Shown: positions 27,613 to 63,345 of the stretch, piece after piece
How the letters are laid out: each line of letters starts with the position of its first letter
How positions within the stretch are numbered: the stretch's first letter is position 1
Assembly (NCBI GenBank): GCA_002269645.1
Contig: NIVC01003539.1
Span: 28,224 to 92,223 of the forward strand
Reading direction: 5' to 3'
Length of the DNA: 64,000 nucleotides
Source of the DNA: Macrostomum lignano
Taxonomy: Eukaryota
Position numbers and translations under genes: made by a program
The notes under the pieces: model-generated
What the model was told of the DNA's origin: nothing
What the model saw: the letters and a program-made list of their open reading frames with translations, nothing else
Database searches by the model: none

Positions 27613-27637
27613 CACAGACAGACAGACAGACAGACAG

Positions 27638-27671
<34 letters not shown>

Positions 27672-27681
27672 AGAGAGACAC

Positions 27682-27728
<47 letters not shown>

Positions 27729-27777
27729 CACAGACAGACACACAGACAGACACACAGACAGACAGACAGACAGACAC

Positions 27778-27843
<66 letters not shown>

Positions 27844-27853
27844 AGAGAGACAC

Positions 27854-27932
<79 letters not shown>

Positions 27933-27977
27933 CACAGACAGACACACAGACACACAGACAGACACACAGACAGACAC

Positions 27978-28036
<59 letters not shown>

Positions 28037-44000: not shown

Positions 44001-44289
44001 ACGACTTGATTGAAATTGCGTAACCATATTGCTAACTCGAAGTGAGACTGATACTGGCTGACTGAGAAATTGATTATGTCATAACTTTTTACTCCAATTG
44101 ACTTGCTGTAAGAATTGAATTATAAGGGCCACAATTCATGTTCTCCAATTGAAAAGAGATAGCCCTGATGCGAACAGACTGGAATGCTAATGTAGCGACC
44201 TGGGTTCGAGTCTTAGAAGCGCAAAATAATTTTTTTATTAAAACACCTTAAAAACTAAAAAACTGCTAAACATAAAAAAAGCGCAATAG

Positions 44290-47200
44290 AAGAGCCACCA
44301 TGTCAAACCTAAAGGAGCCACCATGTCGAACATTAAAGAACCACCATGTCGAACATAAAAGAGCCACCATATCGAACATAAAAGAGTTACCATGTTAAAA
44401 ATTAAAGAGCCACCATGTCGAACATAGAAGAGCCACCATGTCGAACATAGAAGAGCCACCATGTCAAACATTAAAGAGCCACCATTTCAAACCTAAAGGA
44501 GCCACCATGTCGAAAATTAAAGAGCCACCATGTCGAACATAAAAGAGCCACCATATCAAACATAAAAGAGTTACCATGTCAAACATTAAAGAGCCACATT
44601 GTCAAGCATTAAAGACCCACCATTTCAAACCTAAAATAGTTACCATGTCAAACATTAAATAGCCACCATGTCAAACATTAAAGAGCCACCATGTCGAACA
44701 TAAAAGAGCCACCATATTAAACATAAAAGAGTTACCATGTCAAACATTAAAGAGCCACCATGTCGAACATTAAAGAGCCACCATGTCAAACATTAAAGAG
44801 CCACCATGTCGAACATTAAAGAGCCACCTTGTCAAATATTAAAGAGCCACCATTTCAAACCTAAAGAAGCCACCATGTCGAACATACAAGAGCCACCATG
44901 TCGAACATAGAAAAGCCACCATGTCAAACATTAAAGAGTCACCATGTCAAACATTAAAGAGCCACCGTTTCAAACCTAAAAGAGCCACCATGTTAAAAAT
45001 TAAAGAGCCACCATGTCAAACATAAAACAGACACCATTAAGAACATTAAAGAGCCACCATGTCAAATATAAAACAGCCACCATTTCGAAAATTAAGGAGC
45101 CACCATTTCAAAAATTTAAGAGCCGCTATGTTAAACATTAAAGGGCCACCTTGTCAAATATTAAAGAGCCACCATTTCAAACCTAAAAGAGCGACCCTGT
45201 CGAACATACAAGAGCCACCATGTCGAACATAAAAGAGCCACCATGTCGAACATACAAGAGCCACCATGTCGAACATAGAAAAGCCACCATGTCGAACATA
45301 GAAAAGCCACCATGTTAAACATTAAAGAGCCAATATTTCAAACCTAAAGGAGCCACCATGTCGAACATAAAAGAGTCACCATGTTAAAAATTAAAGAGCC
45401 ACCATGTCGAACATTAAAGAGCCACCATTTCAAACATTAAAGAGCCACCATGTCAAACATTAAAGAGCCACCGGTTCAAACCTAAAAGAGCCACCATGTC
45501 GAACATTAAAGAGCCACCATGTCAAACATAAAACAGACACCATGTCAAACATTAAAGAGCCACCATGTCAAACATTAAAGAGCCACCGGTTCAAACCTAA
45601 AAGAGCCACCATGTCGAACATTAAAAAGCCACCATGTCAAACATTAAAGAGCCACATTGTCAAACATTAAAAAGCCACCATTTCAAACCTAAAAGAGCCA
45701 CCATGTCAAACATTAAAGAGCCACCATGTCAAACATTAAAGAGCCACCTTGTCAAATATTAAAGAGCCACCATTTCAAACCTAAAGAAGCCACCATGTCG
45801 AACATACAAGAGCCACCATGTCGAACATTAAAGAGCCACCATATCAAACATAAAAGAGTTACCATGTCAAACATTAAAGAGCCACCATGTCAAACATTAA
45901 AGAGCCACCATGTCGAACATAAAAGAGCCACCATATCAAACATAAAAGAGTTACCATGTCAAACATTAAAGAGCCACCATGTCGAACATTAAAGAGCCAC
46001 CATGTCAAACATTAAAGAGCCACCTTGTCAAATATTAAAGAGCCACCATTTCAAACCTAAAAGAGCCACCATGTCGAACATTAAAGAGCCACCTTGTCAA
46101 ATATTAAAGAGCCACCATTTCAAACCTAAAGAAGCCACCATGTCGAACATACAAGAGCCACCATGTCGAACATAAAAGAGCCACCATATCAAACATAAAA
46201 GAGTTACCATGTTAAAAATTAAAGAGCCACCATGTCGAACATAAAAGAGCAACCATGTCAAACATAAAACAGACACCATTAAGAACATTAAAGAGCCACC
46301 ATGTCGAACATTAAAGAGCCACCATGTCAAATATAAAACAGCCACCATTTCGAAAATTTAAGAGCCGCCATGTTAAACATTAAAGGGCCACCTTGTCAAA
46401 TATTAAAGAGCCACCATTTCAAACCTAAAAGAGCGACCCTGTCGAACATACAAGAGCCACAATGTCGAACATAAAAGAGCAGCTATGTAGAACATAAAAG
46501 AGCCACCATGTCAAACATAAAAAAGCCACCATGTCAAACATAAAAGAGCCAACATGAAGAACATTAAAGAGCCACCATGTCGACCATTAAAAGAGCCACC
46601 ATGTCGAACATACAAGAGCCACCATGTCGAACATAGAAAAGCCACCATGTCGAACATAGAAAAGCCACCATGTTAAACATTAAAGAGCCAATATTTCAAA
46701 CCTTAAGGAGCCACCATGTCGAACATAAAAGAGTCACCATGTTAAAAATTAAAGAGCCACCATGTCGAACATTAAAGAGCCACCATGTCGAACATTAAAG
46801 AGCCACCATGTCAAACATAAAACAGACACCATGTCAAACATTAAAGAGCCACCGGTTCAAACCTAAAAGAGCCACCATGTCGAACATTAAAGAGCCACCT
46901 TGTCAAATATTAAAGAGCCACCATTTCAAACCTAAAGGAGCCACCATGTCGAACATTAAAAAGCCACCATGTCGAACATTAAAAAGCCAACATGTCAAAC
47001 ATAAAAGAGCCACCATGTCAAACCTAAAAAAGCCACCATGTCAAACATAGAAGAGCCACCATGTCAAACATAATAGAGCCACCATGTCAAACATTAAAGA
47101 GCCACCATGTCAAACATAGAAGAGCCACTATGTCAAACATAAAAGAGCCACCATGTCGAACATAAAAGAGTCACCATGTTAAAAATTAAAGAGCCACCAT

Positions 47201-47709
47201 GTCGAACATTAAAGAGCCACCATGTCGAACATTAAAGAGCCACCATGTCGAACATTAAAGAGCCACCATATCAAACATAAAAGAGTTACCATGTCAAACA
47301 TTAAAGAGCCACCATGTCGAACATTAAAGAGCCACCATATCAAACATAAAACAGACACCATGTCAAACATTAAAGAGCCACCATGTCGAACATTAAAGAG
47401 CCACCATGTCAAACATAAAACAGCCACCATTTCGAAAATTAAGGAGCCACCATTTCGAAAATTAAAGAGCCGCCATGTTAACCATTAAAGGGCCACCATG
47501 TCAAACATTAAAGAGCCACCATGTCGAACATAAAAGAGCCACCATGTCGAACATTAAAGAGCCACCATGTCAAACATTAAAGAGCCACCGGTTCAAACCT
47601 AAAAGAGCCACCGTGTCGAACATAAAAAAGTCAACATGTCAAACATAAAAGAGCCACCATGTCAAACCTAAAAAAGCCACCATGTCAAACATAGAAGAGC
47701 CACCATGTC
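44290..47709. repeat. 23-bp satellite GAGCCACCATGTCGAACATTAAA; resumes at 62436 to about 62545
   Basis: Well over 100 variant units. The register continues across the Polinton insertion. Confidence 0.97.
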
Positions 47710-47801
47710 AGTAGTATACGTTTTTTTGACACAAAGCCGATTTCCTTATGGCGAAATACATAGTAAGTACAGGCCCAAAAAAATGGCAGAGTCTGAAATT
47801 T
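47710..47801 (+). repeat. Left terminal inverted repeat (92 bp)
   Basis: Reverse complement of 62344-62435 with one mismatch. Confidence 0.97.
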
Positions 47802-48047
47802 GCCGTGCACGCAAACTAGCTTTTACGCAATGAATTAACCAATTAGCTGAATCACTTTTACGCAAACACCTGTCTATCCACCTAAATTCTATCCGCAATG
47901 AATGCAGCTAATTACAAGCCCAACCAAAATTCAATTTGACACAAAGCTTATTTCGCGTATAACTTAACGCATTTAAATTCTTCTTTTCAAGCAGTATTGT
48001 ATATTTCAACTAGATACAAACACAATTTGACGCACAAATTAGCGAGT

Positions 48048-48611
48048 TTACAAATATTGAGGCAGCACTCGTAAAACAAAATTGCGTAATTTAGCATACA
48101 AGTATCGAAACGAACCAGTGCGAATTATATTCCGTTTAAAAGCGCTTCGAATAAAACACTCTAGGTTTCCTCTGGTAGTCAACTTATGAAAAATATAAAA
48201 AATTACCCAAAATCCACAACTTCCACTCTGTGGGTCTTGGATAGCAAAGCGACTATAACACCAATTTTTCGAATTTCCACATTCTTTTCCTAGCCATTTT
48301 GCTATTCTTGGCAATGGTACTAGACCAAGAGAATCAAAATATTCACCAAGTCGTTTGCTACCGCGACCTGCTCGATGACCATAAACCCAAACGCATACCC
48401 AATGTTTTCCGGGCAGGTTGGAGACGTCAGTATTAACGATAAAAAAATAGTCTTTACCGTCTAAAGGTAAGCGTCTAAGTCCACCAACAAAGTTTTGAGG
48501 AAAAACACCAAGAAATACAACATTTAAAAAATGTGCGCACAATTTCGATACAACATTGCGAAGGAAGCGATCTGTTACACCACGATCTAGGATAGAATCA
48601 ATTACTTCCAT
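48048..48611 (-). CDS. Adenain-like cysteine maturation protease
   Basis: IVNTD...PGKHW (His), EYFDSLG (Asp), IQDPQSGSCGFW (Gln, Cys). Overlaps the MCP stop by 10 nt. Confidence 0.93.
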   Translation of the reverse strand: MEVIDSILDRGVTDRFLRNVVSKLCAHFLNVVFLGVFPQNFVGGLRRLPLDGKDYFFIVNTDVSNLPGKHWVCVWVYGHRAGRGSKRLGEYFDSLGLVPLPRIAKWLGKECGNSKNWCYSRFAIQDPQSGSCGFWVIFYIFHKLTTRGNLECFIRSAFKRNIIRTGSFRYLYAKLRNFVLRVLPQYL

Positions 48612-49924
48612 ACTGTGCCAGGAACAATGTCGCGAAGTTCAGTCAGTTGCAGTTGCTTGTCAAATATACCTCCAAATATGACGTTGTACACGGTACTAGT
48701 TGCAGCATTGAAGCGTAACTCTAGTTTTACATTTCCTTCCTTATACAGTTGCACTCCCCGTCCGACACCAGGTTCACTTCCAAGACTGAATGCAAAAATT
48801 GAGTAACCATTGGCGTAATCCAGCATATTAAATCCAATATCTCGTCCCTGTAGATAGATTCCAAGCTGTTGTAGCAAAAAATTATACTCTGTCACACAAT
48901 CATCTCCAAAGTTTGTCTGCAGCGGACGCGATGGTACCGAGTCTCCATTCACAAACACACCAATGCTGCTCACATTTGCATGCTCAAAGTTGAACGGATT
49001 TGTGTCCATGCTTCCATTGAATGCCTTGTTGCTTACGATTGCCATCAATAAAAGCCGTGGTACCCCACTAGGAAACAAATTTTCATGCGTATGGCTAGAC
49101 GATCCTCGGGGTATAGTAAACGTACCAAGGCTTAGACTTCGGTGCGGATATAATGCATTGTGACTTTTAAGTCCATGAGCATGTGCACTGATAACACTCG
49201 GCGAGGGTTGAACAAACCGCAATCGTAGTTCTGCACGCAAAAACTTGATCTCATAGTCTTTTAAAACCGCACCAGCTTCTAATGTTGACCCGCTCAGGAC
49301 AAATTTACTTTTTGCCGGTATGAGCTTGATCCGTAGTGGTGTCTTTGATAGTAGATACCGAGGCTGACGAAACAAATCCAAGAATAACGGCCCCGATACA
49401 GTGCACCGCCTATTGTTAGCAATGAGCGCCTGCCTCTTTGTTCGTCCATCGTTTTCACTTGTTGCATTCATTTTACCAGCTGTATCCTTGTAAAACCCCC
49501 ACGGCAGTAAACCAGCCTTCTGAGCTGTATGTCCATATTCCAGTAATGTAAGAAGCATAGCCTTGTATGGATACATAAAACTACCACCTTCAACTACAGT
49601 ATCGCCAATAGTAAATTGAACGTCCTCAAACAATGTTCCAATAACCAAATTATTCAAACAAACAAAATTTTTCGTTGCATCTATAGGTTCACCTTCACTA
49701 TCACTAACGCTGAAGCATACCGTGAGCACAGTTTCTTGTAGATCCAAATACAAATCGCCTGCAGGCACAACTTCAAATTCGATAGGTGATCCTTTTGTAA
49801 TACCATGTTGCGGTTGAATGTTAGTATATCGATTATCCAAAACACTAAACTGAACAGGACTTTGATCAAATAGCGACAATTCACTTTTAAGAGCAGCAAT
49901 ATCAGGTCCAAGCAAATGGTTCAT
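48602..49924 (-). CDS. Major capsid protein (double jelly-roll, Polinton hexon-like)
   Basis: 440 aa from ATG 49924. KSELSLF...P.Q...GSPIEF...DLYLDLQETVL, GPLFLDLFRQPRYL, FNGSMDTNPFNFEH and EGNVKLELRF recalled as Polinton MCP motifs. Confidence 0.88.
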   Translation of the reverse strand: MNHLLGPDIAALKSELSLFDQSPVQFSVLDNRYTNIQPQHGITKGSPIEFEVVPAGDLYLDLQETVLTVCFSVSDSEGEPIDATKNFVCLNNLVIGTLFEDVQFTIGDTVVEGGSFMYPYKAMLLTLLEYGHTAQKAGLLPWGFYKDTAGKMNATSENDGRTKRQALIANNRRCTVSGPLFLDLFRQPRYLLSKTPLRIKLIPAKSKFVLSGSTLEAGAVLKDYEIKFLRAELRLRFVQPSPSVISAHAHGLKSHNALYPHRSLSLGTFTIPRGSSSHTHENLFPSGVPRLLLMAIVSNKAFNGSMDTNPFNFEHANVSSIGVFVNGDSVPSRPLQTNFGDDCVTEYNFLLQQLGIYLQGRDIGFNMLDYANGYSIFAFSLGSEPGVGRGVQLYKEGNVKLELRFNAATSTVYNVIFGGIFDKQLQLTELRDIVPGTVWK

Positions 49925-49925
49925 G

Positions 49926-50384
49926 CTACTTTTCAAACAGACTAAAAAGTTTCTTGCTTGCAGTAGCAGTTCGACGTTTTCCTATACCACCGGTCTTCTT
50001 GCGTTTTCTTTTGTTCACGCGTCCCTTTCCACACTGTCTTGTTCGTCGTTTCTTTTGCCGTTTCTTCTTTCCTAAGCTTATAGCCACTCCACTGGTTCTT
50101 TTCCTTCGCTTTGGTCTCGAAACTGCAGTTGTATTAAACATCTCTTCGCTCGATTCTGTGTCCAAGTGACGCTTCCGACCCATACCAATTTTTGCTGTCG
50201 CACTTTTCAAATACTCCAGACCACGATCCAAGAAATCTTTCTTTGCGTTGCGTAGTACAGGATACACCAATCTGTCCGCCAAATTTGACAAAAAACCGTA
50301 ACCTTCGTAAACAGGAATGCCATATCCACCTCCACCTTCAGCAGATCTATTCGGACCAGAATAAAAAGCAAAAATAGGATCCAT
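49926..50384 (-). CDS. Basic putative virion core / DNA-condensing protein
   Basis: ATG 50384. Gly-rich GGGGYG...YEGYGFL head and a very Lys/Arg-rich C-terminus. Position between integrase and MCP. Confidence 0.7.
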   Translation of the reverse strand: MDPIFAFYSGPNRSAEGGGGYGIPVYEGYGFLSNLADRLVYPVLRNAKKDFLDRGLEYLKSATAKIGMGRKRHLDTESSEEMFNTTAVSRPKRRKRTSGVAISLGKKKRQKKRRTRQCGKGRVNKRKRKKTGGIGKRRTATASKKLFSLFEK

Positions 50385-50425
50385 TTCAACAGTCTTCTCT
50401 TCGTCATGCAATCCCAATTCATGTG

Positions 50426-51586
50426 TTACTTATACACTTTAGAAAATAGTTTAGCAGTCTTTGCGTCAAGATCATTTTCGTTTAACCACTGACTTCTTGA
50501 GATTGGCATACCTTTCCATTTTACTAGATACAGACGACTTCCATTTTTCGCTCGATCAGTTTCAATAACTTTTTCAATTTCATTAGGTGTTTCATCTGTC
50601 TCGTTTACCAACATTAGTTCCGCTTGGTTAAACCTTCCTTTCAGCACTTCAAATCCATCTTCAGGGTCCACTAATTCGTACATTGGCGGGTCTGTCAAGT
50701 GTACACGATGAATGCGATATTTTGAATTACTCCAAGTCGTAGTGTATCCTTTTTCAAATGTTCCTCGACGTCGTGTAATTCTAACCCAATCACCAACTTT
50801 AAATTTATTCTCATTCTTTTTAGTGTACGACTTCGCAAACATTTTGTCCCACAAAATTCCTTGTAAATGCGGGTCTGTCTCTACCCGTTTTGGTGTTTCT
50901 CCACTCAAGGATCGATGAGGACTAGAGTTGAAATTATCTTCCAATTGCGGTAAAATGTCAAACCATCGAGGTAAATTTTTTGCTCGAAAGTATCGTAATA
51001 GACGTTCCTTTAACGAGCGGATAAATCGTTCAGCCATGCTTGCCTTGTAATTGCTTTGGCTAACAAAAAATCGAACTCCTTCCTGTTTCAGCATTTGACG
51101 TGTAGCTCTTCCGAGAAACTCCATACCAGCATCACCTTGTAAATAAACAGGCTTAAAACCACTTCGAAAAATCTCTAGTAATACTTGACTAACTTCTGAA
51201 GGCTTCTTTGTACGCAATGGTCTTAGTCGTACAACTCTAGTAAAACAGTCGATAAGAACAAGTATGTAACGATAACCTCGATTTTCCGTCTTGTATTGAG
51301 GTAAATCTGCCAAATCGATTTGAAACTGAAACTTTGCAACTGGTGGCACACTAATTTTTGGAGTTGGAAAGTTTCGTCGTGTTTTTCGAAATAAATGATG
51401 CTCATTTGTTGATCGCACCCAATTATCAACTTCGCGCTTTGCAACTTTGTTCGTAATCTGTGGAAACTTTTTACGTACTTCACGAACAAGTATAGTCTTG
51501 TTACCACTAAATGAAGTAGGCCTGTTCAAGTTAAAAAAAGCATCCGTCAAAAATTCTTCAATTTCCTTACGCACTCGCTTCATCAT
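50426..51586 (-). CDS. RVE (DDE) integrase with C-terminal chromodomain
   Basis: FQIDLADL (D), YLQGDAGMEF (D), KASMAERFIRSLKERL (E). Chromodomain EIEKVI...YLVKWKGMP...QWLNENDL. Confidence 0.96.
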   Translation of the reverse strand: MMKRVRKEIEEFLTDAFFNLNRPTSFSGNKTILVREVRKKFPQITNKVAKREVDNWVRSTNEHHLFRKTRRNFPTPKISVPPVAKFQFQIDLADLPQYKTENRGYRYILVLIDCFTRVVRLRPLRTKKPSEVSQVLLEIFRSGFKPVYLQGDAGMEFLGRATRQMLKQEGVRFFVSQSNYKASMAERFIRSLKERLLRYFRAKNLPRWFDILPQLEDNFNSSPHRSLSGETPKRVETDPHLQGILWDKMFAKSYTKKNENKFKVGDWVRITRRRGTFEKGYTTTWSNSKYRIHRVHLTDPPMYELVDPEDGFEVLKGRFNQAELMLVNETDETPNEIEKVIETDRAKNGSRLYLVKWKGMPISRSQWLNENDLDAKTAKLFSKVYK

Positions 51587-51867
51587 CAGTTAGATTGATG
51601 CTAGTCGTTTGACAGTTGCAACAAAAGAACGAAGCCTCGATCGAATCTCCGTCAGTATCCTCGTTGTGCTCCTTTCCCAGAAACGGCACACATTCAGATT
51701 TTATGCAAAAAAACTCACAGAGACGAATCAAAAGTTTTTGGAAGATAGATGACATGGTTTGTCTTATTAAACTATATATTTTTCATAAACAAAAAATTAA
51801 CCTTTTTAAAAAGCTTATAGTGCTCGAATCAATTTTGTTAAAACGTAATCTGTAATTTTAAAACAAC

Positions 51868-52557
51868 TTAATTCAGTGTTTGATAATTTTCAAACAGACT
51901 AAGATCCTCCTTTGCAACAGTTTTTGGAGCAGACATTAGCTCGTTTCGTACATGACGCCCGATTTGGTTTGCTGCGATTCCACGTTTTCGAAGAAAGTCT
52001 AAAAATGTTTTTAGTCCACTAGGCGGTTGAGTCTCGTGTCGCTTAAGCGGTCTGTCTCGAACAACATATTCCATGAGATCTTGTATCTCGGCATCAGTCA
52101 AATTAGCCAGCATTGGTTCTGCATTCTTGTCCATGTCCGAAAATAGGTTTTGAGCGAGAGCTTCGAAACGTGGTAAAAAAACTTTAGGAATTTCCCTTGA
52201 TTCGCTGGCATATGAACTTCTTACAGTAGTCCCTTTGCGAACAAGTGACAGATTGTCCTCGTCTCCAGTGCGATAGACTTTGCGCAATTTTAAAAGTTTG
52301 TCTTCCAATCTGCTTCGTTTCAATTGAGCTGTGTAATTTGGCTCCTTTTCCATTTCCTTGTCCAAGTTATCCATTTGGTCTCTCATTTCCACCATATTTT
52401 TTGCCAGAGCATCTTGCGGTGCGTCTAAAACTTCAGTTTTTCGAGGTGTCTCAGCAGTTGGTGACGATCCTTGCTCTGCACCTTGACATGCAGATTGATA
52501 CACAGATTCAGGTACTAGATACATTCGTTGAAAACTACTACTCTCGTTAGTTCGCAT
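51868..52557 (-). CDS. Hypothetical Polinton protein (229 aa, coiled-coil-rich)
   Basis: Clean ATG-to-stop ORF in the gene array. N-terminal RMYLVPE resembles the KMxLVP starts I recall from Polinton proteins. Confidence 0.7.
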   Translation of the reverse strand: MRTNESSSFQRMYLVPESVYQSACQGAEQGSSPTAETPRKTEVLDAPQDALAKNMVEMRDQMDNLDKEMEKEPNYTAQLKRSRLEDKLLKLRKVYRTGDEDNLSLVRKGTTVRSSYASESREIPKVFLPRFEALAQNLFSDMDKNAEPMLANLTDAEIQDLMEYVVRDRPLKRHETQPPSGLKTFLDFLRKRGIAANQIGRHVRNELMSAPKTVAKEDLSLFENYQTLN

Positions 52558-52567
52558 TATATTCCTA

Positions 52568-52995
52568 CTACTTTCGTTGAATTGATCGTATTAAATTCGC
52601 TGCTCCCGCGGCGGTACCAACTACTCCAGACGTTATCCCAAGCGCAGTGCTTATAGCAGGTAGAGCGGCAATAATTGGAGCCAAAAAAGGTAAAAATCCT
52701 CCGTGTTGGACAAGTATTTTCCTTTTTGCAGTAATTGGAGTCTTCTGTTCCAAAAGCTGGCGTATATATCTGCGATGCTTCTCAAGTCGTCTTTTGTTAC
52801 AGTTACTAATTTTAATACGTCCACTAATAATATTAAACAGAAAGTCTACTAGACATCGTATCTCCGACTCTGAAAGTGTTTGTAAAAAACTTTTTCTCTG
52901 CTTTGGATGCTTTAGCCGATAAACAATTTGTAGTAAAAAAGCACACTGACACAATGAGCGAGCATTTTGTTTTCCTTTTCTGTTAGTTCGCTCAT
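52568..52995 (-). CDS. Conserved Polinton virion protein with QHGG/FLPFLAPII amphipathic tail (protein VI-like); start unresolved
   Basis: K.RK..L......I..L.D...N...G.I.I....KRRL.KH...IRQL...KRKILVQHGGFLPFL pattern. No in-frame ATG. ATG 52995 joins if the A6 run at 52935-52940 is really A7. Confidence 0.72.
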
Positions 52996-53051
52996 TCTTA
53001 CAAAACAAATTCACAAAATTTTCTATTACACAATTAATCTTTGCTTATAAA

Positions 53052-54041
53052 TTAGTCCGACCTATGTTTAAAATGCAGTACGACAACAACGTGTGCTCCC
53101 GGATCAAAATTAAACGGTTTTCCGCGCTGGTCCGATAGTCGAATCGAAATCTCGTGAATTTGTTGTCGATTTGTTTTCAAGTAGTAGGGTGTTTGCAATG
53201 CACTGCTATCGCGTATAAGTTCTCCGTTTTTCTTTTGTTGGAGTTCCACAACTCGAAGCAACGGTACTGATGTACTTCCCACTGCTTGATACTCGATTAT
53301 ATCTGTGTAACAGTACATGTAAACCGTTTTACTAGGCATCGGAGAAGGTAGCACAGCATCCAAGTAGGTTTTGTTAATGCGCCAAACACGATTTCTCAAC
53401 CAATATTGGTGTACTTTGATGTACACTTCTCCTTCCGTTTTTCGAAGATAGTCTCCATGCGAAACAAGTCGTATAGCTTCACCAGGCGATAGAACACAAT
53501 AAAAAACATAATAGTTCTCAGGTACTAGCGCTAGAGTATTGTCGAGACTTTTTATCAAATCCAAGTATGAACCATCCGGTGGTTGTACACTACCAGCGGC
53601 AGGTTTTGATAATTTTTCCGAGACAAGTCCAGAAAGTTTCTTCCAAGAGTCAAATTTGAAAGCGTCCATAAATGTAACTGGTAGTTCTAATCCAATAGTT
53701 TTTTCGCCTGAATTTCGTAAAAGCCAGGCAAATTTTTCATCTGTACCAGACGGTTGCCAGGAAACGTAAGCATCCAAGTCTGCCTCTGCCCAAACACGAC
53801 CCCAATAGTTTTTCTTTAATCGTATTATTGAGTCAATGTCCGCAAAATATGGAACTTCAAATCGACGCTCACGATGAGCATTTGGCGTCGTAATTGCTCC
53901 ATGGCACAGTAATTCAACTAGTGCAACCTCGAAGAATCCGTTCAATAAATTTATTGGTTCAGTTAGTCGCACTCGAAATTCATTAGGCGAGTTGGTTTCG
54001 TAACTGATATCGTTTGACGGCAAAAAAACGTAAAAACTCAT
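53052..54041 (-). CDS. Minor capsid protein (penton, single jelly-roll)
   Basis: ATG 54041. FYVFLPSN...NSPNEFRVRL..PINL..GFFEVALVE and C-terminal YCYTDIIEYQAVG...PLLR...ISIRLSDQRG.PF.F...VVLHFK. Confidence 0.87.
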   Translation of the reverse strand: MSFYVFLPSNDISYETNSPNEFRVRLTEPINLLNGFFEVALVELLCHGAITTPNAHRERRFEVPYFADIDSIIRLKKNYWGRVWAEADLDAYVSWQPSGTDEKFAWLLRNSGEKTIGLELPVTFMDAFKFDSWKKLSGLVSEKLSKPAAGSVQPPDGSYLDLIKSLDNTLALVPENYYVFYCVLSPGEAIRLVSHGDYLRKTEGEVYIKVHQYWLRNRVWRINKTYLDAVLPSPMPSKTVYMYCYTDIIEYQAVGSTSVPLLRVVELQQKKNGELIRDSSALQTPYYLKTNRQQIHEISIRLSDQRGKPFNFDPGAHVVVVLHFKHRSD

Positions 54042-54098
54042 TTTGAAATAAAACACAAACTAATATTGACAACAGTTTATAATTTGCTTATAATAATA

Positions 54099-54788
54099 TT
54101 ACACAAACTTTGCATCACATTCACGAGTATAGACAACTTGTTCATCACCAGAAAATATTCCTGTTCTCAATCGTAAAAAATCTGGTGTCACTTGCCGCAG
54201 GTCAATGAATAAATATGAAAAAGGTTTGTTATTTGTTGCGTCTTCATACACATTCACTAGAAACCTACTATTACGCGGATACATTTGTCGACCGAGATGT
54301 TCAACTGTGGTTCGATCGCGCACACTACGAGTTAGACAAATATAACTAGCTGATAAACTTCGCATGCGTGCTTCTGGATCAGACTTGTTAAAAAGACCTT
54401 GACAAAGGTACAGACAAGTCAAAGGGATATGATGCGCATGCTTTGTAAACATACTAGTAAATTCTGGCAACTTAGCAATCTCGCTTTGCAAGTCGTCAAC
54501 AACAACCAAATCGTGTGGTAAAAAACGATTAATCATCTGTGGTGTGAATTCGGGTACAAAAACAATAGGGTCAAGACCGCTTTTTTGCCAGCATGTTCTA
54601 ATTCGTTGTTGATCGTCTGGTTTCAAACTTGATCCATGGCACCAAACAAGACGGCACGGTTTTTTATCAAATAATTCTTTTCGTTCAGTCAACAAACGCA
54701 ACGTCCATTCAGTTTTACCCGAGTTTGAAGGTCCAGCAATAATAAATGTAGAATCGTGAGCTAGTTGCATATTGTATGGCTGCTGCAT
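54099..54788 (-). CDS. A32/FtsK-like genome-packaging ATPase
   Basis: ATG 54788. Walker A AGPSNSGKT, Walker B LVVVDD, HH..LTCLYLCQ, KPFSYLFIDL. Confidence 0.93.
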   Translation of the reverse strand: MQQPYNMQLAHDSTFIIAGPSNSGKTEWTLRLLTERKELFDKKPCRLVWCHGSSLKPDDQQRIRTCWQKSGLDPIVFVPEFTPQMINRFLPHDLVVVDDLQSEIAKLPEFTSMFTKHAHHIPLTCLYLCQGLFNKSDPEARMRSLSASYICLTRSVRDRTTVEHLGRQMYPRNSRFLVNVYEDATNNKPFSYLFIDLRQVTPDFLRLRTGIFSGDEQVVYTRECDAKFV

Positions 54789-54790
54789 TT

Positions 54791-55234
54791 TCAAGCACCA
54801 AAGCGTTGCTTAACTTGCATAACCTTGGTAACCAACTTCGCAGCTAGTTTTTCTTTCCAACCAGTAGACGGATCGTGGGCAATCTCTCGTGCACCAGATT
54901 CTAATAGCTTATCAGCTTTTAACCTCTCTTGCACGTCAGAATTTTTATCATAGGCCACGTCGTGAAGCATGCACAAATTGTCAAGCCGATTAATTCCTCG
55001 TTGTCCTTTTGCTAGCCTAGCTTGCAGTTGCGTACCTGGACCACAAAACTGATATCCGCCGGGTAAATGTGCTTCAAATGGTAAATGATTAATTAACCAA
55101 TTTACGACACCATAACCTTGTTGCTTTTTATTAATCTTTCTAATAGATTTCTTCTTTTTACGAATGCTCTTCTTTTTCTTTTTAAAACCTCGATCTTTCG
55201 CTGGAGACATTTTTACAACATATATTTTAGGCAT
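54791..55234 (-). CDS. Parvovirus-type phospholipase A2 domain virion protein
   Basis: Ca-loop GYQFCGPGT and catalytic NRLDNLCMLHDVAYD. Basic N-terminus followed by QQGYG. Confidence 0.9.
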   Translation of the reverse strand: MPKIYVVKMSPAKDRGFKKKKKSIRKKKKSIRKINKKQQGYGVVNWLINHLPFEAHLPGGYQFCGPGTQLQARLAKGQRGINRLDNLCMLHDVAYDKNSDVQERLKADKLLESGAREIAHDPSTGWKEKLAAKLVTKVMQVKQRFGA

Positions 55235-55325
55235 AAATTTTTAAAATTGCTTATAGTATTTACAAAGCTCTCGCATAGTGCACCAATCACCAAAGAAAAA
55301 AATCAGTTTATTATTATTATTATAC

Positions 55326-55808
55326 TTATTGGCCAGTGCTGCCAAAGCCGCCAAAGCCGCGCCGCTTGGTCGGCGGCTCAATCATCCGAATCGAATTGTC
55401 TGCTTCAGTCACATAGACTGAAGCAAGCACGGCCTGCTCCAGAACCAGTTGTGCAATACTGAGCCCGGCATAGTACTCAAAGTCTTCCGGACTGTAATTA
55501 AACAAGACTATACAGATTTCACCAGTATAGTCGGGGTCGATTACGCCACCGCCAACAAATAAGCTGTGCAGAGCCATGCTGGAACGTCCCGCTATCCTGC
55601 CATAGGTACCAGGCGGTAAGCGAATTTTGAGTCCGGTTCGCACACTCCGGGACTCGTAGGCCGGAATGGTACCATCGACGCCAGCGCAAAGATCATACCC
55701 GATCGACCCGACAGTTTTTCGGGTCGGAATCGTTGCCGAATCGTATAGACGTTCAACTAAAAGCTTACGATCAGTTAGTTGTTGTTGCTGCTGCTGCTCG
55801 GGATTCAT
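55326..55808 (-). CDS. dut: Trimeric dUTPase
   Basis: All five motifs present: GYDL, GRSS, GVIDPDYTGE, AQLVL, RGFGGFGSTG. ATG at 55808. Confidence 0.96.
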   Translation of the reverse strand: MNPEQQQQQQLTDRKLLVERLYDSATIPTRKTVGSIGYDLCAGVDGTIPAYESRSVRTGLKIRLPPGTYGRIAGRSSMALHSLFVGGGVIDPDYTGEICIVLFNYSPEDFEYYAGLSIAQLVLEQAVLASVYVTEADNSIRMIEPPTKRRGFGGFGSTGQ

Positions 55809-56132
55809 GTCGATTCTTGTAGCTGAAAGTTTAAAAAAAAGTTTTTTTTCTTGAAACATGAACGATAGCACTACATTTACGTCTACTACAAACACAAGCT
55901 TAGTCTTGAGAATCTAACTATAAAAAATATACTTTTTCAAATAATTAAACACAAAAAAGTGCTAAAATTATAATTTAAACGAATGCCGGTATCATTTATT
56001 TATTGTAAATAATGATCAATGAAAAAATTAATGATGGGTTACAGTCTTCTATAGCATGCTATTACTTTGTACAACAAAAGAGATCAGAGCATATTGTTAA
56101 TTAATTAGCCAAGTGCCAGTGTCCAAAGGGTA

Positions 56133-56431
56133 GCGAATTAATTGAACTTGTCCAGGATCGCTTCGTATCGAAGAAGCTTAGTGCAAGTTTTCTTTGTTGC
56201 ATCAAAAAAAACTTTCTGTTTTCGAGAACGAATGGACTGTATGCGCGAAAACACAAGTTGTCGCTTGTGTAAGACTCTTAAATAGTCTTGATGCTTTAAA
56301 CTGCTCTGTGCGGCTTTAGAAGCAGTACTGCTCCAGCTTTGCGACCGATTGAGACTGGAACTTTAAACGATTGCTGCTTAACCAGACCGGACCGGACTGG
56401 ACCGGACCGGACTGGACCGGACTCCCCGCGC

Positions 56432-56463
<32 letters not shown>

Positions 56464-57177
56464 ACCACCACCACCGCCGCCACCACCACCACTGCCGCCG
56501 CCCGCCCCCACACCACCGTGGGACGTATTTGTTGACAGTGTGCTTGCATGGCTTTTGCGATAAACGCAGAGCATCAAGTCTAGCTGCTCGATTGCTCTAT
56601 ATTGCCAATTACTACCTCGAGATTGAAAATTGTCAATTTTTATTAACAACTGATTAATAACGCGTGCGAACCAGTCATTGTAGGCCTCGGGAGATAACAG
56701 CATGTCACTGTTTGTAATCGTCTCATCAAATGATATTGTCGCAATGTTGGTATTAAAATAGACCGAAATGATCTCTTCGCTGCTCGAGCCATCGTTGTCG
56801 TCTGCTGCTGTTTTCGGTCGAAATAGTGTCACTTTCAAGTGAAAGCAGACTCTTATTAATAAACTGGGTGAGCCAATTTTTTCCAATATTTTAAATATTG
56901 GTTCTCTTAAAGACGCAATCAACTCGCCAGGAAGTAACTCGCCAGAGCTGTTGCCTTGTTGTTCAAGAGTGGGAGTAAATTCGACAAAATTTACCCGACC
57001 ACGATGAGCTGACTCGCGCAAAGCGATGGACCACCCATCTGGTGGGTTTTCGATCAGGTTTTGCAGCGATCCGGTCAGTAATCGTTGCGGTGAAAAACAA
57101 GCACCATGCGAGTGAGCATGCAGCTCGGCTTGATTACTGAACTTTTTTCTGCAGATTTGGCATTGTGCACGCGGCAT
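56133..57177 (-). pseudogene. Remnant of protein-primed PolB: C2H2 finger plus N-terminal domain, low-complexity junction, then a C-terminal-like fragment in another frame
   Basis: CQICRKKF...LHAHSH. YFNT...IDNFQSRGSNWQYRAIEQLDL resembles the GSGW region of Polinton PolB N-termini. After the (CCG/CCA)n-(GGACC)n patch, another frame reads LKHQDYLRVL...IQSIRSRKQKVF (about 56330-56133). No exonuclease or palm motifs anywhere in the element. Confidence 0.6.
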
Positions 57178-57400
57178 TGTGTGCACCTAGCTCGACAACG
57201 AGCGTATCGAGCATAATATTAATAGATGATCCGGTTTGTCATTTGCGGCTGTAAGAAAAATGATGATTTGGTTAGTTATAGGTATAGCTGACACGTTTAC
57301 TATTAGAGAAAACAATTGGTAAATAAATAAAAAAAGACAAAATGTTTGTAAAAGAATGCATCGCAACTGCGATTTGACAGCAATTGTTTACTTGTTAAGT

Positions 57401-57958
57401 TTAGTTATTAACAGAGATTAAAAAATCCTTGACATGGTTAAGAATATTATTCAATTCATGAGTGTTTTGAACGCCCATAATAACAAACTTTTTCGAAAAA
57501 AATATGTTACAAAAAAGCCTTGGTTTTGATGCTGATCTAACAGAAACTGCTTGTGGGAAATTTTCTGCATCGTATCCAACCAGATAATTCGAATAGTAGC
57601 CTGCATATCTTTTTAGACTAGAGAAACCGAATTTTGGCCAAAGATGACCAATAAAGCCGACATAGGTACTGCTCTGAATTTTTACTGAATCAAAATCTAC
57701 ACAATTAATAGTGTCGTTGATAAATCGTAAAACTGAGACTATCTGAGAATTTGATTTACAGCCATATATAGTTAGTTTTCCTGCTGGATAAAGTTGGATT
57801 TTAGCATTTGAATAAATTGTCTTTAGCATTGTTGGTCGGCTTAGGAATAGTTTGCAAAACCGGTTTCTGGTCTGTAGCTTCTGTTTGGTCTGCTTTAAAT
57901 CAAATTTTTCAAACGGGTGCAGCTTCAGACTCGCAGTAACTATTAATAGGACAAGTCG
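57401..57958 (-). CDS. TATA-binding-protein-like factor (about 185 aa open frame after a splice acceptor; first ATG only at 57829)
   Basis: Two TBP repeats: LIVTASL...FDLK...NRFCK...AKIQLYPAGKLTIYGCKS and KIQSSTY...YDAENFPQAV...KPRLFCNIFFSKKFVIMG. Compare TBP TALIFSSGKMVCTGAKS, KIQNMVG, YEPELFPGL and KPRIVLLIFVSGKVVLTG. Confidence 0.8.
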   Translation of the reverse strand, partial: RLVLLIVTASLKLHPFEKFDLKQTKQKLQTRNRFCKLFLSRPTMLKTIYSNAKIQLYPAGKLTIYGCKSNSQIVSVLRFINDTINCVDFDSVKIQSSTYVGFIGHLWPKFGFSSLKRYAGYYSNYLVGYDAENFPQAVSVRSASKPRLFCNIFFSKKFVIMGVQNTHELNNILNHVKDFLISVNN

Positions 57959-58168
57959 CTAAAACGGAAAATAAATAATAAGAAAAGTTAAACATGACTA
58001 TACTATCGTAAATTCTAATATTAAATTACAAAACCTGGTTAGCGTACAAGGAGTAGCAAAAAATGTTTTGAGCTTTTCCCTAAAAAATAATATTTCCCTA
58101 GCCAAAAATTTGATAAATATAGTGGAATAAGTTAGTTAAAACTTGGATAAAATTAGTCAAAAATTTTG

Positions 58169-59366
58169 TTACTCATCATCAGAGCTGCTGTACGAGTCGT
58201 CCGATGAAGACACGCTAGCTGTAGTAGCGTCCGCAGCAGCACGCTTTAAAAATGCTGTCTCCTTGGACGCTACCCTGGTTCCAGAGGCAGGTGTACTCAC
58301 CAAGATCTTTGCTGGTGGAGCCTCCACCCAGTCTGTGCCATCTGCACCAGCTTCGGCAGAATTGTTTTGCTGTTTTGCACCGCTGCGTTTTCGAACTTGC
58401 TTTTTAGGCGGCGGTTCAATAGAGGCTGGCGCTGCATTCGATGTAGTCGACTTCTTCGATACGGTGGTGGTAGACCGACGCTTTGCAGGTGACTTGGCAG
58501 GTGTCACCTGGCTTGAATTCTGCAGGCTTTGTTCATTTGCTTCTTCTTGCTCACAGGTAGATGTTGGGGACGGACTCCTGCTTCTAATTGCTGACTTGGT
58601 CGCGGGTAGGTGTGCAAGCACTCCCTTGAACATGTCGAGGCGCTGCAACATGTTGTCGGAAGATTCTATGAGTGTCAGAGAGCGCACAGCGAATGTAATG
58701 CGCCAGACGAGGCAGCCTTTTGGACAATACAAGCTCGTTGCTTGCACTGTCATTTGGTAGGTACCGCTGACACCTTTGAAATCGGAAATGGACACCTCCT
58801 TCCCGTGTGGATGATCGTTGCTGATCCTGATTGTGGCACAAGGGTAAGCAGGCTTTATAGCCAGCCATTGTTGAGGCACAAACTCGAGGACGTCGTTAGC
58901 ATGCTGATGAGCTGGTTTTGTTAGTCGTGCCAAGGGTCGAGCATCTTGAATCTCGTTCAACTTGACCGATAGACCTTTTTCGACTTGACTGCAAAACATT
59001 ATATAAATTATGAATATAGTTTCCTAAAATTAATTGTATAAATTTAATATGGTGCTCACCGGAGAGAGTGGAAGAGTTCCTTATCGCAGCTGTCTGGATG
59101 AAATTGGACACTTACTGCGTCGCGAGAGTCGTGTCTGCAAGACGGATGATCGAGCTCTGGCCTTTCTGCGATTCCACGAAAAAGCTCCATTGGAGCCTTG
59201 GTTTGCAATATAATTGGGTACCATTTTGTACACTCGATTGATGGTTTCCACGCAATAGATCGAAACTGGCAGGACGAACCAGTCGTGGTTGTAGACTGCT
59301 CTCCAACGTAAAAATCGGACTCGAGTCGGAGCGTACAATTGACTCCGTCTTGATGCAAGCTGCCAT
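58169..59366 (-). CDS. Spliced gene, probable OB-fold single-stranded DNA-binding protein with acidic tail
   Basis: 71-nt GT-AG intron 59059-58989 joins ORF 59056-59379 in frame to ORF 58169-58999 (CG/T = Arg). PIILQTKAPMELFRGI resembles the T7-like viral SSB motif. Ends SSSDDSYSSSDDE. ATG 59366 needs one extra base at the 59310-59314 run. Confidence 0.6.
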
Positions 59367-60059
59367 GTCTTACAAGCAATTGAATATAGTATTTCTTTTG
59401 CTGTAATGATTGAGCTCATGAAAAATTGACCATTTCGGGTCTTGTATTTATAGCAAGCTTTGCATGCTGTTTGTGAACTAGTAAACAAATTTAATTGTTG
59501 CGTGCTGATTAAGACATTGTTGCGTGCCAAAGGTGGCATAAGTTTCTAGGGTGGGTTGCATGATTAGGTCTAATTTTACGCAAATGTAGGTTGATATTTT
59601 ATACAATAAAATTAATGAATCTTAGGCACACTAGTTATAAATTTGCAAGAGTAACACGATGGCAAGCGTTTAATAAGAAGACTGCTGGTTGCTGCTTCAT
59701 TAGATTGGTTTTGTTCTCAAGTAGAATGTAATTAAAATATTTTGCGACTTGAAAAATTAGCAATCTTGGATTTTAGAGTAAAAATAAGCTGCACGCGGTG
59801 CTATGAAATTAATTTATTGAAAGTTTTGCTTGCATGTTGGAATTTTTTAGCTCGCACGGTGACAAGAGATTGCTTGAGTAACCTATATATAGAGTGTTAC
59901 TTTTCAAACAGAAAAAGGTATAGTTGTAACTCAGCTTTTGCAGTCCTATATTGAGCAGAAGCTATATAGAGTTACACTATCATGCTGCGACGCGCAGCTT
60001 GTTGGGACTATAATGACTGCCGCTGCTATAACCGCATGCAGTCAGTGCAGTTGACACAC

Positions 60060-60770
60060 AAATGCTGTTTGGACTAAGCTAAATTACTGTGTTGAGACAG
60101 TTAAGCTGGACCACGGCTAAATCACTATTGATACGGTTAATTGCTACTAGACCCATGGCTAAATCACTGTACGTTGAGACGGTTAAGCTGGACCACGACT
60201 AAATCGCTGTACGTTGAGACGGTGGTTAAGCTGGACCATGGTTATAAAACTGGACGGGTGGTTAAGCTGGACGACTACAGCTAAAATTACTGTTGAGTCA
60301 GTTATGCTAGACCACAGCAGCCAAATCACAGTTGAGGTAAAGCTGACCATAGCTAATTCTCACTGTTGAGACGGGTGCTGCTGCTTGGCTCACAGCTAAA
60401 TAACTGGACAGTTAAGCTAATCGGACTACAGCTAAATCCCTGTTGAGACAGTTGCCTGGACCACAGCTAAAATCACTGTTGAGGCAGTTAAGTCTGGACA
60501 ACAGCTAAAATTACTGTTGAGACAGTTAAGCCTTGACTATAGCTAAATCATCGTTGAGGTAGTTAAGCCTGGACTATAGCTAAATCACTGTTGATGCAGT
60601 TTTAAGCTAGACCACAGCTAAATCATACTGCTGAGGCAAAAAAGCCGGACCACGGCTAAAAACTGTTGAGGCAAAAGCTGGACCACAGCTAAATCATACT
60701 GTTGAGGCAAAAGCTGGACCACAGCTAAATCATACTGTTGAGGCAAAAGCCAGACCATGGCTAAAGAAAC
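60060..60770. repeat. Array of about 18 diverged 34-42-bp units with an internal palindrome
   Basis: Consensus CTGTTGAGRCAGTTAAGCTGGACCACAGCTAAATCA containing AGCTG-N5-CAGCT. Confidence 0.9.
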
Positions 60771-60927
60771 GTATGAAAAAAAAATTATTTGCATGGATTA
60801 ATAATTTTTGTTTAATGATGACTGTACAAGATATTGACTTTATATTGAATTAAATAATTTCAATAAATGGCGAATAAAATTGAAAGAATTTTTTAGAATA
60901 ATGAATTTATAGAGATTATATTATTGA

Positions 60928-61566
60928 TTACAGACTTGTTTGATATATACTAAAAGAGCAATTACTTGGACACATTGCTGGCAAAATTTTATGAAGAGTT
61001 AGAAAAAATGTCTTTTTAAGATAGGTCCCAATATTCAAATACTTGAGTTGTATTACAGGTCTTTGTAATTCTACTTGGTAGAAGCCTGTGCTCATTTGAG
61101 AGACTTTTACAGACTTGATGTCCTTCTGTACAATAATTGGCGAGTTTAGCAGCGGTTGAACTTGGGTAGAAATAGCAATTGATGATGATGGTGTTTCAGT
61201 TGCTGTCGTTGGTTTGGTACTTGTAGGCTTACTGCAAGTTTGCTTTGTTGGGTCATTGTAGCTGGTTGGTGATGGTGGTGGTGGTGCATACTGCAGTTGG
61301 TCAGTTGGTCGTGGGTTCGATTGCTGCCTAATTGACTGAATAACATCAGTTCTTGTGTAAATGCGATCTAGCTCAGTTGTCTGTCTCTCGACATGAATCG
61401 AGGTTACTCTGGCGAGAGATGTAGAATATGATGCTCTTGCAGCAGAATTGGATGTGGTGGTGTCGTGGCAAATGCGTTTGCACTGATCTGGAGGTGGCCG
61501 CGTGAAGAAACCATTCTTGAATGCTATAATAATGGATAAGATGAGGGAAATTTGGTATAGGTGCAT
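60928..61566 (-). CDS. Orphan 212-aa protein with signal-peptide-like N-terminus and Thr/Pro/Ser-rich middle
   Basis: MHLYQISLILSIIIAF, CKRIC, PPPP/TKPTT-rich stretch and CPSNC. Clean ORF on the same strand as all element genes. Confidence 0.55.
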   Translation of the reverse strand: MHLYQISLILSIIIAFKNGFFTRPPPDQCKRICHDTTTSNSAARASYSTSLARVTSIHVERQTTELDRIYTRTDVIQSIRQQSNPRPTDQLQYAPPPPSPTSYNDPTKQTCSKPTSTKPTTATETPSSSIAISTQVQPLLNSPIIVQKDIKSVKVSQMSTGFYQVELQRPVIQLKYLNIGTYLKKTFFLTLHKILPAMCPSNCSFSIYQTSL

Positions 61567-61584
61567 GTATACAATGTATATAGA

Positions 61585-61810
61585 AACTGAACTAGCAGAG
61601 AATCAGTCTAAACAGAAACCGAACTAGCAGACAATCAATCTAGAAATTCTGAACTAGCAGAGTATTAGTCTAAACAGAAACCGAACTAGCAGAAAATCAA
61701 TCTAGAGACTGAACAAACAGAGGATCGGTCTAAACAGAAACCGAACTAACAATCAATCTAGAAACTAAACTATAGCGAACAGTCAATCTAAAAAAGAAAA
61801 CTGAACTAGA
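61585..61810. repeat. About 30-bp degenerate tandem repeat upstream of the orphan ORF
   Basis: AACTAGCAGA.AATCA.TCTA units. A GTAAGA donor-like site lies just upstream on the minus strand (about 61828). Confidence 0.75.
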
Positions 61811-62343
61811 GTAGGTGATTATCTTACCTTGTTTAACATAGCGCTCGGCCAATTCCTGCTGACGTGATCGCTTCATTTCACTTAAGATGTAAGTATAGTT
61901 GAACAAGTAGTATAATGTAAACTTGGTTTAAGTTATTTAATATTTTCTGTGTCAGTGTGTTCGTATATATATATAGTATAAAGAAGAAGCATGTTGACGC
62001 AGTTGTTGACATAGTATCTGTAAACCATCTGCTCAAGTTGGTGCAAAAATTCTATAGGCACTCAAGAATAGATCATTTACTATCTTTCTTCAAAAGGGTG
62101 ATAATATTCACAAGTTTTCAATATTTCAAAAACACTTGAAATGTGTGAATAGCTTTGGAGTAAATTTGTCTTGAATGGAATCCTTTGAAGTGTGTTTGTG
62201 TCACCATTGCTAGAATCGGTTACTTGTATTTTGGACAGGTGGATATGCAATTCGTCTGAATAATCACGTTGCGTAAAAGATATTTAGCGTGCACTTGGAA
62301 TTTCAGACTGCGTGCACATGGAATTTCAGACTGCGTGCACATG

Positions 62344-62435
62344 AAATTTCGGACTCTGCCATTTTTTTGGGCCTGTACTTACTATGTATTTCGCCATAAG
62401 GAAATCGGCTTTGTGTCAAAAAAACGTATACTACT
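62344..62435 (-). repeat. Right terminal inverted repeat (92 bp), preceded by extra copies of a 23-bp unit (62296-62343)
   Basis: Ends ...AAAACGTATACTACT. Subterminal TGGAATTTCAGACTGCGTGCACA is repeated. Confidence 0.97.
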
Positions 62436-62639
62436 CATGTCGAACATAAAAGAGCCACTATGTCAAACATAAAAGAGCCACCATGTCAAACATAGAAGAG
62501 CCACTATGTCAAACATAAAAGAGCCACCATGTCAAACATTCAAGATATCCAATTTCAAATGTAAAGGTATAAAGCGCCATGCCAATTTAAAGGAGCCACT
62601 ATAAAGCTAAGGAAATTGTCGCTCTAGCTACTTATTGTC

Positions 62640-63195
62640 TGGATGGTTGCTATTTGGGGATGCTATCTATCTTGGGGATGCTTGCTATTTGGAGGATGCT
62701 TGCTTTCTGGGGGATGCTTGCTATCTGGGAATGCTTGCTATCTGGGGATGCTTGCTATCTGGGGGATGCTTGCTATCTGGGGATGTTTGCTATCTGGGGA
62801 TGCTTGCTATCTGGTGGATGCTTGCTATCTGAGGGATGCTTGCTATCTGATGATGCTTGCTATCTGGGGATGCTTGCTATCTGGGGTATGCTTGCTATCT
62901 GAGGGATGCTTGCTATCTTGGGGTATGCTTGCTATCTGAGGGATGCTTGCTATCTTGGGGATGCTTGCTATCTGGGGGATGCTTGCTATCTGCGGAATGC
63001 TTGCTATCTTGGGATGCTTGCTATCTGGGATGTTTGCTATCTGGGGGATGCTTGCTATCTGGGGGATGCTTGCTATCTGGGGATGCTTGCTATCTGGAGG
63101 ATGCTTGCTATCTTGGGATGCTTGCTATCTGGGAAATGCTTGCTATCTGGGAGAATGCTTGCTATCTGGAGGATGCTTGCTATCTGGGGATGCTT
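62640..63195. repeat. 18-19-bp minisatellite GATGCTTGCTATCTGGGG inside the Helitron
   Basis: Direct tandem units. Confidence 0.95.
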
Positions 63196-63345
63196 GTGGT
63201 CTTGGGAAGATTTCTTATTGCAATTCACTTTCATTGAGCAGTTTGTCTGTTGTCTTTGTGAAGGATTTTTTGGCTGTCTTTTTGTTAATTGTAGAGAACA
63301 GAGATTCTATCCAGATGTCCCCCATCGGGGGGCGAAGATTGCTAG

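Follow-up and report, generated by a model that had tools for sequence, protein, structure and literature searches.

Does an endogenous Maverick (Polinton) with a full set of open virion genes represent an autonomous virus and, if not, how was it multiplied in its host genome? This question is raised by an element on contig NIVC01003539.1 of Macrostomum lignano, of which a stretch of 64,000 nt was analysed (hereafter the window; all coordinates are positions in it). The Maverick element covers positions 47710-62435 (14,726 bp, free of N). The original prediction described it as an endogenous virus with intact modules. This holds for the virion and integration genes, which are all open, but the replication gene has been lost through a 3,161-bp deletion that had been overlooked. 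An intact virion module is no proof of an autonomous virus. We consider it probable that the element belongs to a non-autonomous, helper-dependent Maverick subfamily which is copied in trans and resembles an integrated defective-interfering genome. The deleted form is found at far more genomic places than the complete virus on which it probably depends.

The borders of the insertion could be precisely determined. By direct reading of the plus-strand flanks, the target site duplication (TSD) CATGTC is located at 47704-47709 and 62436-62441. The terminal inverted repeats (TIRs) pair a left arm at 47710-47801 (plus strand), which begins with AGTAGT, with a right arm at 62344-62435 (minus strand). 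Alignment of the arms revealed 84 matching bases, one mismatch, and seven further matches, which add up to the predicted 92 bp with a single mismatch and AGTAGT/ACTACT ends; a second measurement gave an arm length of up to 104 nt at 96%. The insertion target is a host 23-bp satellite array (44286-47709, resuming at 62436-62539; 148.9 and 4.5 copies according to TRF). CATGTC occurs within the satellite's own 23-bp unit, yet the two flanks, when aligned in phase, share exactly these six bases, and 16 other TSD hexamers were found at other copies of the element. The exact 6-bp TSD and the AG-starting TIRs, both of the Polinton type, are thus confirmed. The window copy is a precisely bounded Polinton insertion. 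It is not a chimeric assembly, a concern that the original prediction itself had raised, because contig C2542 repeats the element together with both flanks. For the site of one other copy, a related empty locus carries the hexamer once and lacks the element; this is a paralogous locus of 86-95% relatedness. An empty-allele test at the CACATT site returned matches to a repeat family only and no empty allele.

A TIR probe was compared to the 764-Mb genome and 40 places were scored (the best 40 of 68 candidates); polymerase-bearing copies match this probe at 99-100%. One such copy, on contig C84, has a length of 19,582 bp and is 96% identical to the window element, compared to which it has 3,161 extra bases at ca. 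56302 and ca. 1.6 kb extra near 60770. In the product of the 3.2-kb stretch that the window copy lacks, PF03175 (E 6e-20) was detected along with an Endonuclease_7 domain. No polymerase catalytic domain was detected in any frame of the window element, and the genome-wide PF03175 search lists no match inside it. The window contains a 293-aa open reading frame (ORF), the start of which runs on as a frame of 1414 codons in C1136 and of 1415 codons in C2373. Judged from this continuity, the ORF is the first fifth of the gene for the polymerase pPolB, with a stop directly after the deletion junction. What is left of the 3' part of pPolB (56101-56301, minus strand) is an orphan that corresponds to the C84 sequence downstream of the deletion. 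The alignments show that pPolB lost its protease, nuclease, and polymerase domains in one deletion. Lacking pPolB, the element is therefore unable to copy itself in the way Polintons are thought to. Adjacent to the deletion is a mosaic tract (55210-56210) with 11-13% substitutions relative to a polymerase-bearing copy, as opposed to 0.4-6% elsewhere; it contains the dUTPase gene (pS 0.40 relative to the polymerase-bearing copy). The deletion may have arisen together with recombination between two lineages.

Of the 40 places scored with a 126-bp probe spanning the deletion junction (the best 40 of 48 candidates), 30 matched the entire probe at 98-100%, while the other 10 matched only one half of it. 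In 28 places, the junction is the same letter for letter. A first polymerase-internal probe identified three places (3/3); of the ten places found with a second one, three are identical, three are contigs that represent a single rearranged site, and four are only distantly related. Insertion ends were collected on two end-only contigs and on the 29 further contigs that contain the junction. The deleted copies have 17 distinct target hexamers, of which 16 were found at both the left and the right end; in 20,000 shuffles, the number of paired hexamers had a mean of 0.07 and a maximum of 3. Polymerase-bearing copies were found at two insertion sites, both with paired hexamers. In the compared region (47800-60000), 26 deleted-type copies differ from the window copy by 0-0.35%, which, together with the paired TSDs, is in line with the predicted recent insertion. 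Two sub-variants exist among the deleted copies (94-97% vs. 99.9% identity in the right-hand 2 kb, plus variants in TIR and linker length). Because a clean deletion is common to near-identical copies at independent sites, amplification occurred after the loss: no fewer than 17 independent integrations clearly took place when the polymerase stretch was already missing. Contigs C84, C4161, C4450, and C4064 carry hexamers of different sites at their two ends and are mis-joins across near-identical copies; none of them holds the window copy.

Two other deletion derivatives of the same family were encountered, each at a single site, and neither is amplified, unlike the form which keeps the terminal-protein region described below. 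One is a rearranged 8.5-kb derivative devoid of integrase and most virion genes (TSD ATCATA), which is found on four contigs. It was considered as a second amplified family, and this was ruled out as all four contigs represent one site. The other one, at C105, lacks the entire block from the single-strand binding protein (SSB) gene via TBP and pPolB to dUTPase.

What the deletion left of pPolB deserves consideration. The 293-aa ORF (56296-57177, minus strand) comprises a C2H2 finger, a terminal-protein domain, and a Gly linker, and ends at the deletion junction (ca. 56302), just ahead of the conserved Cys motif of the next domain. In related pPolBs, a linker is followed by a conserved D/N-C-F motif, which is presumably the vOTU active site. 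The terminal-protein domain is N-terminal in pPolB and precedes the linker, which is the position expected for a PRD1-like terminal protein. The structure model of the 293-aa ORF (pLDDT 78) has Y-family little-finger domains as its best structural matches, with further matches to adintovirus and MELD PolB. The predicted fold, a four- to five-stranded sheet with two helices and a Y-family little finger/PAD as top PDB match, is that of PRD1-like terminal proteins, for which a likeness to Y-family little fingers has been described in the accessible text of a recent study (10.1101/2024.03.18.585575). Residues G188-S189 are invariant in 12 of 12 sequences and are placed in the loop between a helix (163-186) and a strand (192-205); the model thereby offers a candidate linking residue, a Ser near a Gly between the last helix and the last strand. 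By the predicted fold of its product, what the deletion has left is a free-standing gene for a primer (terminal) protein. A search for longer proteins with this domain returned one match and was uninformative. It is conceivable, though rather doubtful, that the deleted form is an evolved satellite: its free terminal protein would prime a helper polymerase that is already cleaved from its own terminal protein, and would raise the priming capacity of the helper, while the satellite would also supply virion proteins and outcompete the helper. If true, a Polinton system of two parts would exist in nature in integrated form, repeating the split between terminal protein and polymerase seen in adenovirus.

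Under the helper-dependent reading, amplification might have proceeded as follows. The deletion stripped pPolB of its catalytic part, whereas both TIR origins, the integrase, the virion genes, and the terminal-protein frame were kept. pPolB would be supplied by a full-length relative that is expressed alongside in one cell, and it would replicate the deleted genome, in linear form, from the TIR origin common to both. In copying or packaging, this shorter genome would match or surpass that of the helper, as defective-interfering genomes do, and the integrase, either its own or that of the helper, would insert it with a 6-bp duplication. Spread could have occurred via particles or within germ-line cells. 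The deleted genome has ca. 75% of the helper length (14.7 vs. 19.6 kb); for adenovirus, 75% of full length is near the lower packaging limit.

Compared to the C1136 copy (pS ca. 5%), pN/pS values are 0.04 for the major capsid protein (MCP), 0.14 for the integrase, 0.12 for the ATPase, 0.11 for the TBP-like protein, 0.26 for the terminal-protein region, and 1.26 for the last accessory exon. These values mostly reflect the time before the deletion. The element is present in 20 of 24 listed runs from seven studies, none of which is recorded as RNA. Four of these (X9, X10, X17, and X19) were compared as assembled contigs, which drop rare variants. A splice joint at 58988-59060 is seen in X17 and X19, and another one at 61523-61828 in X9, X17, and X19, both with GT-AG borders and compatible phases; neither joint occurs in X10, a DNA-like run. 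Because GT-AG joints are seen in runs and are absent from X10, the Maverick family is transcribed. At 39 variant places (of 121), the letter of the run is carried by polymerase-bearing copies at 30-32 and by deleted copies at 1-7. Most of these places are supplied by X17 and X19, whose letters probably stem from transcripts of the helper type; this is only a hint, as strain differences could explain it. The letters of X9 and X10 agree with the deleted type.

Several points weigh against the helper-dependent reading. Trans-replication, free linear DNA, and particles are presumed parts of it. Given ca. 5% synonymous divergence and the tract of 11-13% next to the deletion, the deleted form does not descend directly from the polymerase-bearing copies resident in this assembly. 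Among the deleted copies, 37 non-synonymous and 20 synonymous coding changes were counted, and there is no clear sign of ongoing selection on their own virion genes. In only 5 of the 16 paired sites do the left and right ends share a contig; the other 11 were paired across contigs, one of them via a contig that ends before the junction. Given the four mis-joined contigs, copy identities may have been partly smoothed by the assembly. Finally, the RNA nature of the runs is a guess, they may represent other strains, and the comparison of run letters covers 39 of 121 variant rows.

These points have to be seen in the light of the alternatives. The element might be mobile independently of a polymerase, as a giant cut-and-paste transposon which uses its own rve integrase and rises in copy number through host replication and gap repair, with no helper involved. 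Its integrase is open and has D, D, and E motifs, its TIRs are intact, and deleted sites outnumber polymerase-bearing ones by 17 to 2, all of which would fit. We nevertheless regard this as unlikely because, in the available parts of the respective reports, pPolB is described as required for Polinton replication (PMC6431247) and the (AGT)2 end motif is interpreted as a protein-priming origin (PMC8097293). One related empty site lacks a footprint, which says little as this is a paralogous locus with 86-95% identity. Quite improbable, too, is a single wave of integrations into the germ line, caused by an infection from outside in which the deleted genome already dominated, the helper virus being outside this assembly and the copies having been passive since. 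That the deleted copies are near-identical to each other, yet ca. 5% (synonymous) apart from the resident polymerase-bearing copies, would be accounted for, as would the mosaic tract at the deletion and the mostly polymerase-bearing-type letters in X17 and X19. However, the two sub-variants suggest more than one round, and the genome itself harbours helper-type copies whose TIRs match and which are apparently transcribed.

An artefact of assembly or of host genome duplication, affecting copy number or the deletion itself, is very improbable. In its favour, there are four contigs whose two ends belong to different sites, several sites are found on two or more contigs, and no junction-bridging contig is among the longest run pieces listed, where reads are cut at the adjacent repeat. 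Such an artefact would nevertheless not be expected to yield 17 different hexamers with different flanks, 16 of them paired, nor a junction that is letter-identical in 28 places, nor an element present in most of the listed runs from seven studies. There remains the complete, self-replicating endogenous virus, which the open virion and integration ORFs had suggested; with no polymerase catalytic domain in any frame, it is refuted for the window copy. We thus return to a non-autonomous Maverick replicated by a helper as the most plausible reading.

As in the Mavericks/Polintons (adintoviruses) covered by the available text of two studies (PMC8097293, PMC8502044), the element has (AGT)2//(ACT)2 ends, a 6-bp TSD, an rve integrase with a chromodomain, and genes for a protease, a putative ATPase, two putative capsid proteins, a phospholipase A2 (PLA2), and a protein-X-like protein. 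The Maverick end motif has been defined there as (AGT)2//(ACT)2 or (AG)3//(CT)3 (PMC8097293). The element differs from an intact Maverick in that the catalytic domains of pPolB are deleted in the amplified form. The TBP-like gene is another difference, and two accessory genes are spliced, whereas vertebrate Mavericks have been reported as intronless. In Alpha-type adintovirus, the PLA2 gene is described as having a protein-X-like domain (PMC8502044); here, both are present as separate ORFs. The helper pPolB, with its Endonuclease_7 (HNH-type) domain, is reminiscent of the nematode/oomycete pPolB2, for which an HNH-type domain is described (PMC10748475). As far as reported, adenovirus/PRD1 and a split coral polinton have the terminal-protein domain as an ORF of its own, with a Ser between the last helix and the last strand (10.1101/2024.03.18.585575), as is found here. 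Those genomes still encode a polymerase, whereas here the terminal protein alone remains.

Non-autonomous transposons, defective-interfering viral genomes, and helper-dependent adenovirus genomes spread through a helper. The deleted Maverick likewise keeps the cis signals and has lost the replication function: it derives from a Maverick and works like a defective-interfering or non-autonomous genome. In contrast to helper-dependent systems, it has kept ca. 75% of the helper length and an entirely open virion and integration module; it could therefore contribute proteins besides taking them. Short non-autonomous Polinton families are represented in Repbase. No description of a polymerase-less, virion-complete Maverick subfamily which retains the terminal protein was found in the literature searched (with Repbase and most subscription journals outside its scope). 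Endogenous retroviruses are stated to be copied by complementation in trans (PMC8097293). The same text reports many Maverick copies without a working pPolB in axolotl, tuatara, and pike, and calls this amplification perplexing, leaving it unexplained; genes of those vertebrate defective copies are described as eroded by stops and frameshifts, in contrast to the one clean shared deletion found here. For the anole, the available part of the report records no defective Mavericks (PMC3014272), which are otherwise common. Because one polymerase deletion preceded all the independent integrations in the present host, either pPolB works in trans or Polintons move without it. According to the accessible text, Polinton replication and spread in animals have not been observed, and the abundance of polymerase-defective copies is perplexing (PMC8097293). 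The host studied here carries both forms, which are distinguishable by single-letter differences and by the unique junction, and the family is transcribed; the question is therefore open to observation and to knock-down.

Gene families were assigned by a Pfam profile search of the element ORFs, with further scans against PHROGs, NCBIfam, PDB profiles, and Atlas clusters; the PHROGs and NCBIfam scans gave names only for the dUTPase and TBP. Every gene of the element is on the minus strand. The ORFs for protease, MCP, minor capsid protein (mCP), ATPase, integrase, PLA2, and dUTPase had been predicted to be uninterrupted, and all seven are open. The Pfam cut-offs are passed by integrase, PLA2, and dUTPase, whereas the evidence for protease, ATPase, MCP, and mCP is weaker; an intact Maverick would be expected to have a double jelly-roll MCP, a single jelly-roll mCP, and a packaging ATPase of the A32/FtsK type. 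The 187-aa protein encoded at 48048-48611 is a candidate adenain-like cysteine protease, for which the evidence is weak but concordant (PF00770, E 0.035; S273R from African swine fever virus, E 0.008; His, Asp, and Cys motifs); it has a homologue in a related Maverick family of this genome. The putative MCP (440 aa; 48602-49924) has 113 full-length homologues, several named F54H12.2-like, which we take to mark Maverick MCPs, and its pN/pS value points to purifying selection. Its best PDB profile match is the adenovirus hexon (E 0.6, weak), and single-sequence folding resulted in a pLDDT of 30. A basic 152-aa protein (49926-50384) without Pfam match is, from its composition, a putative DNA-condensing core protein. 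The integrase (386 aa; 50426-51586) consists of an rve domain (PF00665, 4.5e-8), with D, D, and E motifs at 89, 149, and 184, and a C-terminal chromodomain (PF00385, 1e-6). It is followed by a 229-aa ORF without family assignment (51868-52557), which has a homologue in a related family, and by a protein-X-like frame (52571-53044; PF05829 Adeno_PX, E 2.9e-6), which has no in-frame ATG in the window text and shows an indel near its 5' end in three runs compared to the window.

The putative mCP (329 aa; 53052-54041) has only unnamed clusters as Atlas neighbours (score 0.97) and was named by its position, and also by an N-terminal pattern which we assume to be characteristic. A putative packaging ATPase (229 aa; 54099-54788) was assigned from Walker A and B motifs and from position, with no Pfam family over the cut-off and no PDB match. 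The parvovirus-type PLA2 (147 aa; 54791-55234; PF08398, E 3.4e-9) and the dUTPase (177 aa; 55326-55859; PF00692, E 1.5e-29) precede the pPolB remnants. Beyond these, a TBP-like protein (142 aa, open frame to 185; 57401-57829) is encoded (PF00352, E 2.3e-7; NCBIfam 8.5e-7, which is below the cut-off). A full HMMER scan of 1.84 billion representatives returned four close relatives, unnamed and on short contigs (41-44%), while a word-index search returned no relatives of this protein; a fibronectin match in the HMMER scan was dismissed as chance. In the available text of PMC8502044, TBP is named once, in the legend to a figure on MELD viruses. A TBP-like gene between the SSB-like gene and pPolB also occurs in three related Maverick families of the genome, and 78 matches to this gene were found among 88 scored places.

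The 276-aa ORF with an acidic tail (58169-58999) is joined to a 5' exon across an intron at 58989-59059. It is possibly a single-strand binding protein, as its matches are Atlas viral clusters (score 0.88-0.93) in which 10-31% of the members carry DUF2738/DUF5871, domains which we presume to be linked to SSB. Internal tandem repeats of 36-40 bp (60078-60765) vary in length among the copies, and the ca. 1.6 kb extra of the polymerase-bearing copies is located alongside. Last in this direction is a spliced accessory gene (60928-61876; exon 61828-61876, intron 61524-61827) with a Ser/Thr-rich second exon.

The genome contains many further Maverick families, several of them with long open polymerase frames. 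The genome-wide PF03175 search resulted in 119 matches from the best 91 of 974 candidates, and relatives of the MCP are found at 63-81% identity. One deleted copy carries another element of 8.45 kb inside its MCP gene (C4072:14540-22995; also on C2932). This nested element has TIRs of ca. 1.2 kb which start with AGTAG, and a short target duplication. It also has a pPolB of its own (PF03175), which is distributed among several frames, perhaps through introns, and has a motif that we take to be Vsr-like. No match to the capsid, integrase, ATPase, or protease of the Maverick family was found in it. All 40 scored places (the best 40 of 80 candidates) matched a probe from this element at 96-100%. 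It is an abundant pPolB element devoid of capsid genes and apparently also of an integrase. Its pPolB is not favoured as a helper because it has no tblastn similarity to that of the Maverick family and the TIRs differ.

With respect to the surroundings in the window, an 18/35-bp satellite (62641-63196) starts 200 bp to the right of the Maverick element. To its left, host exon frames are found on the minus strand at 14679-15467 and 27476-28708, which, from their translations, we presume to be PRELI/MSF1-like and cyclic-nucleotide-binding (NTE-like), respectively.

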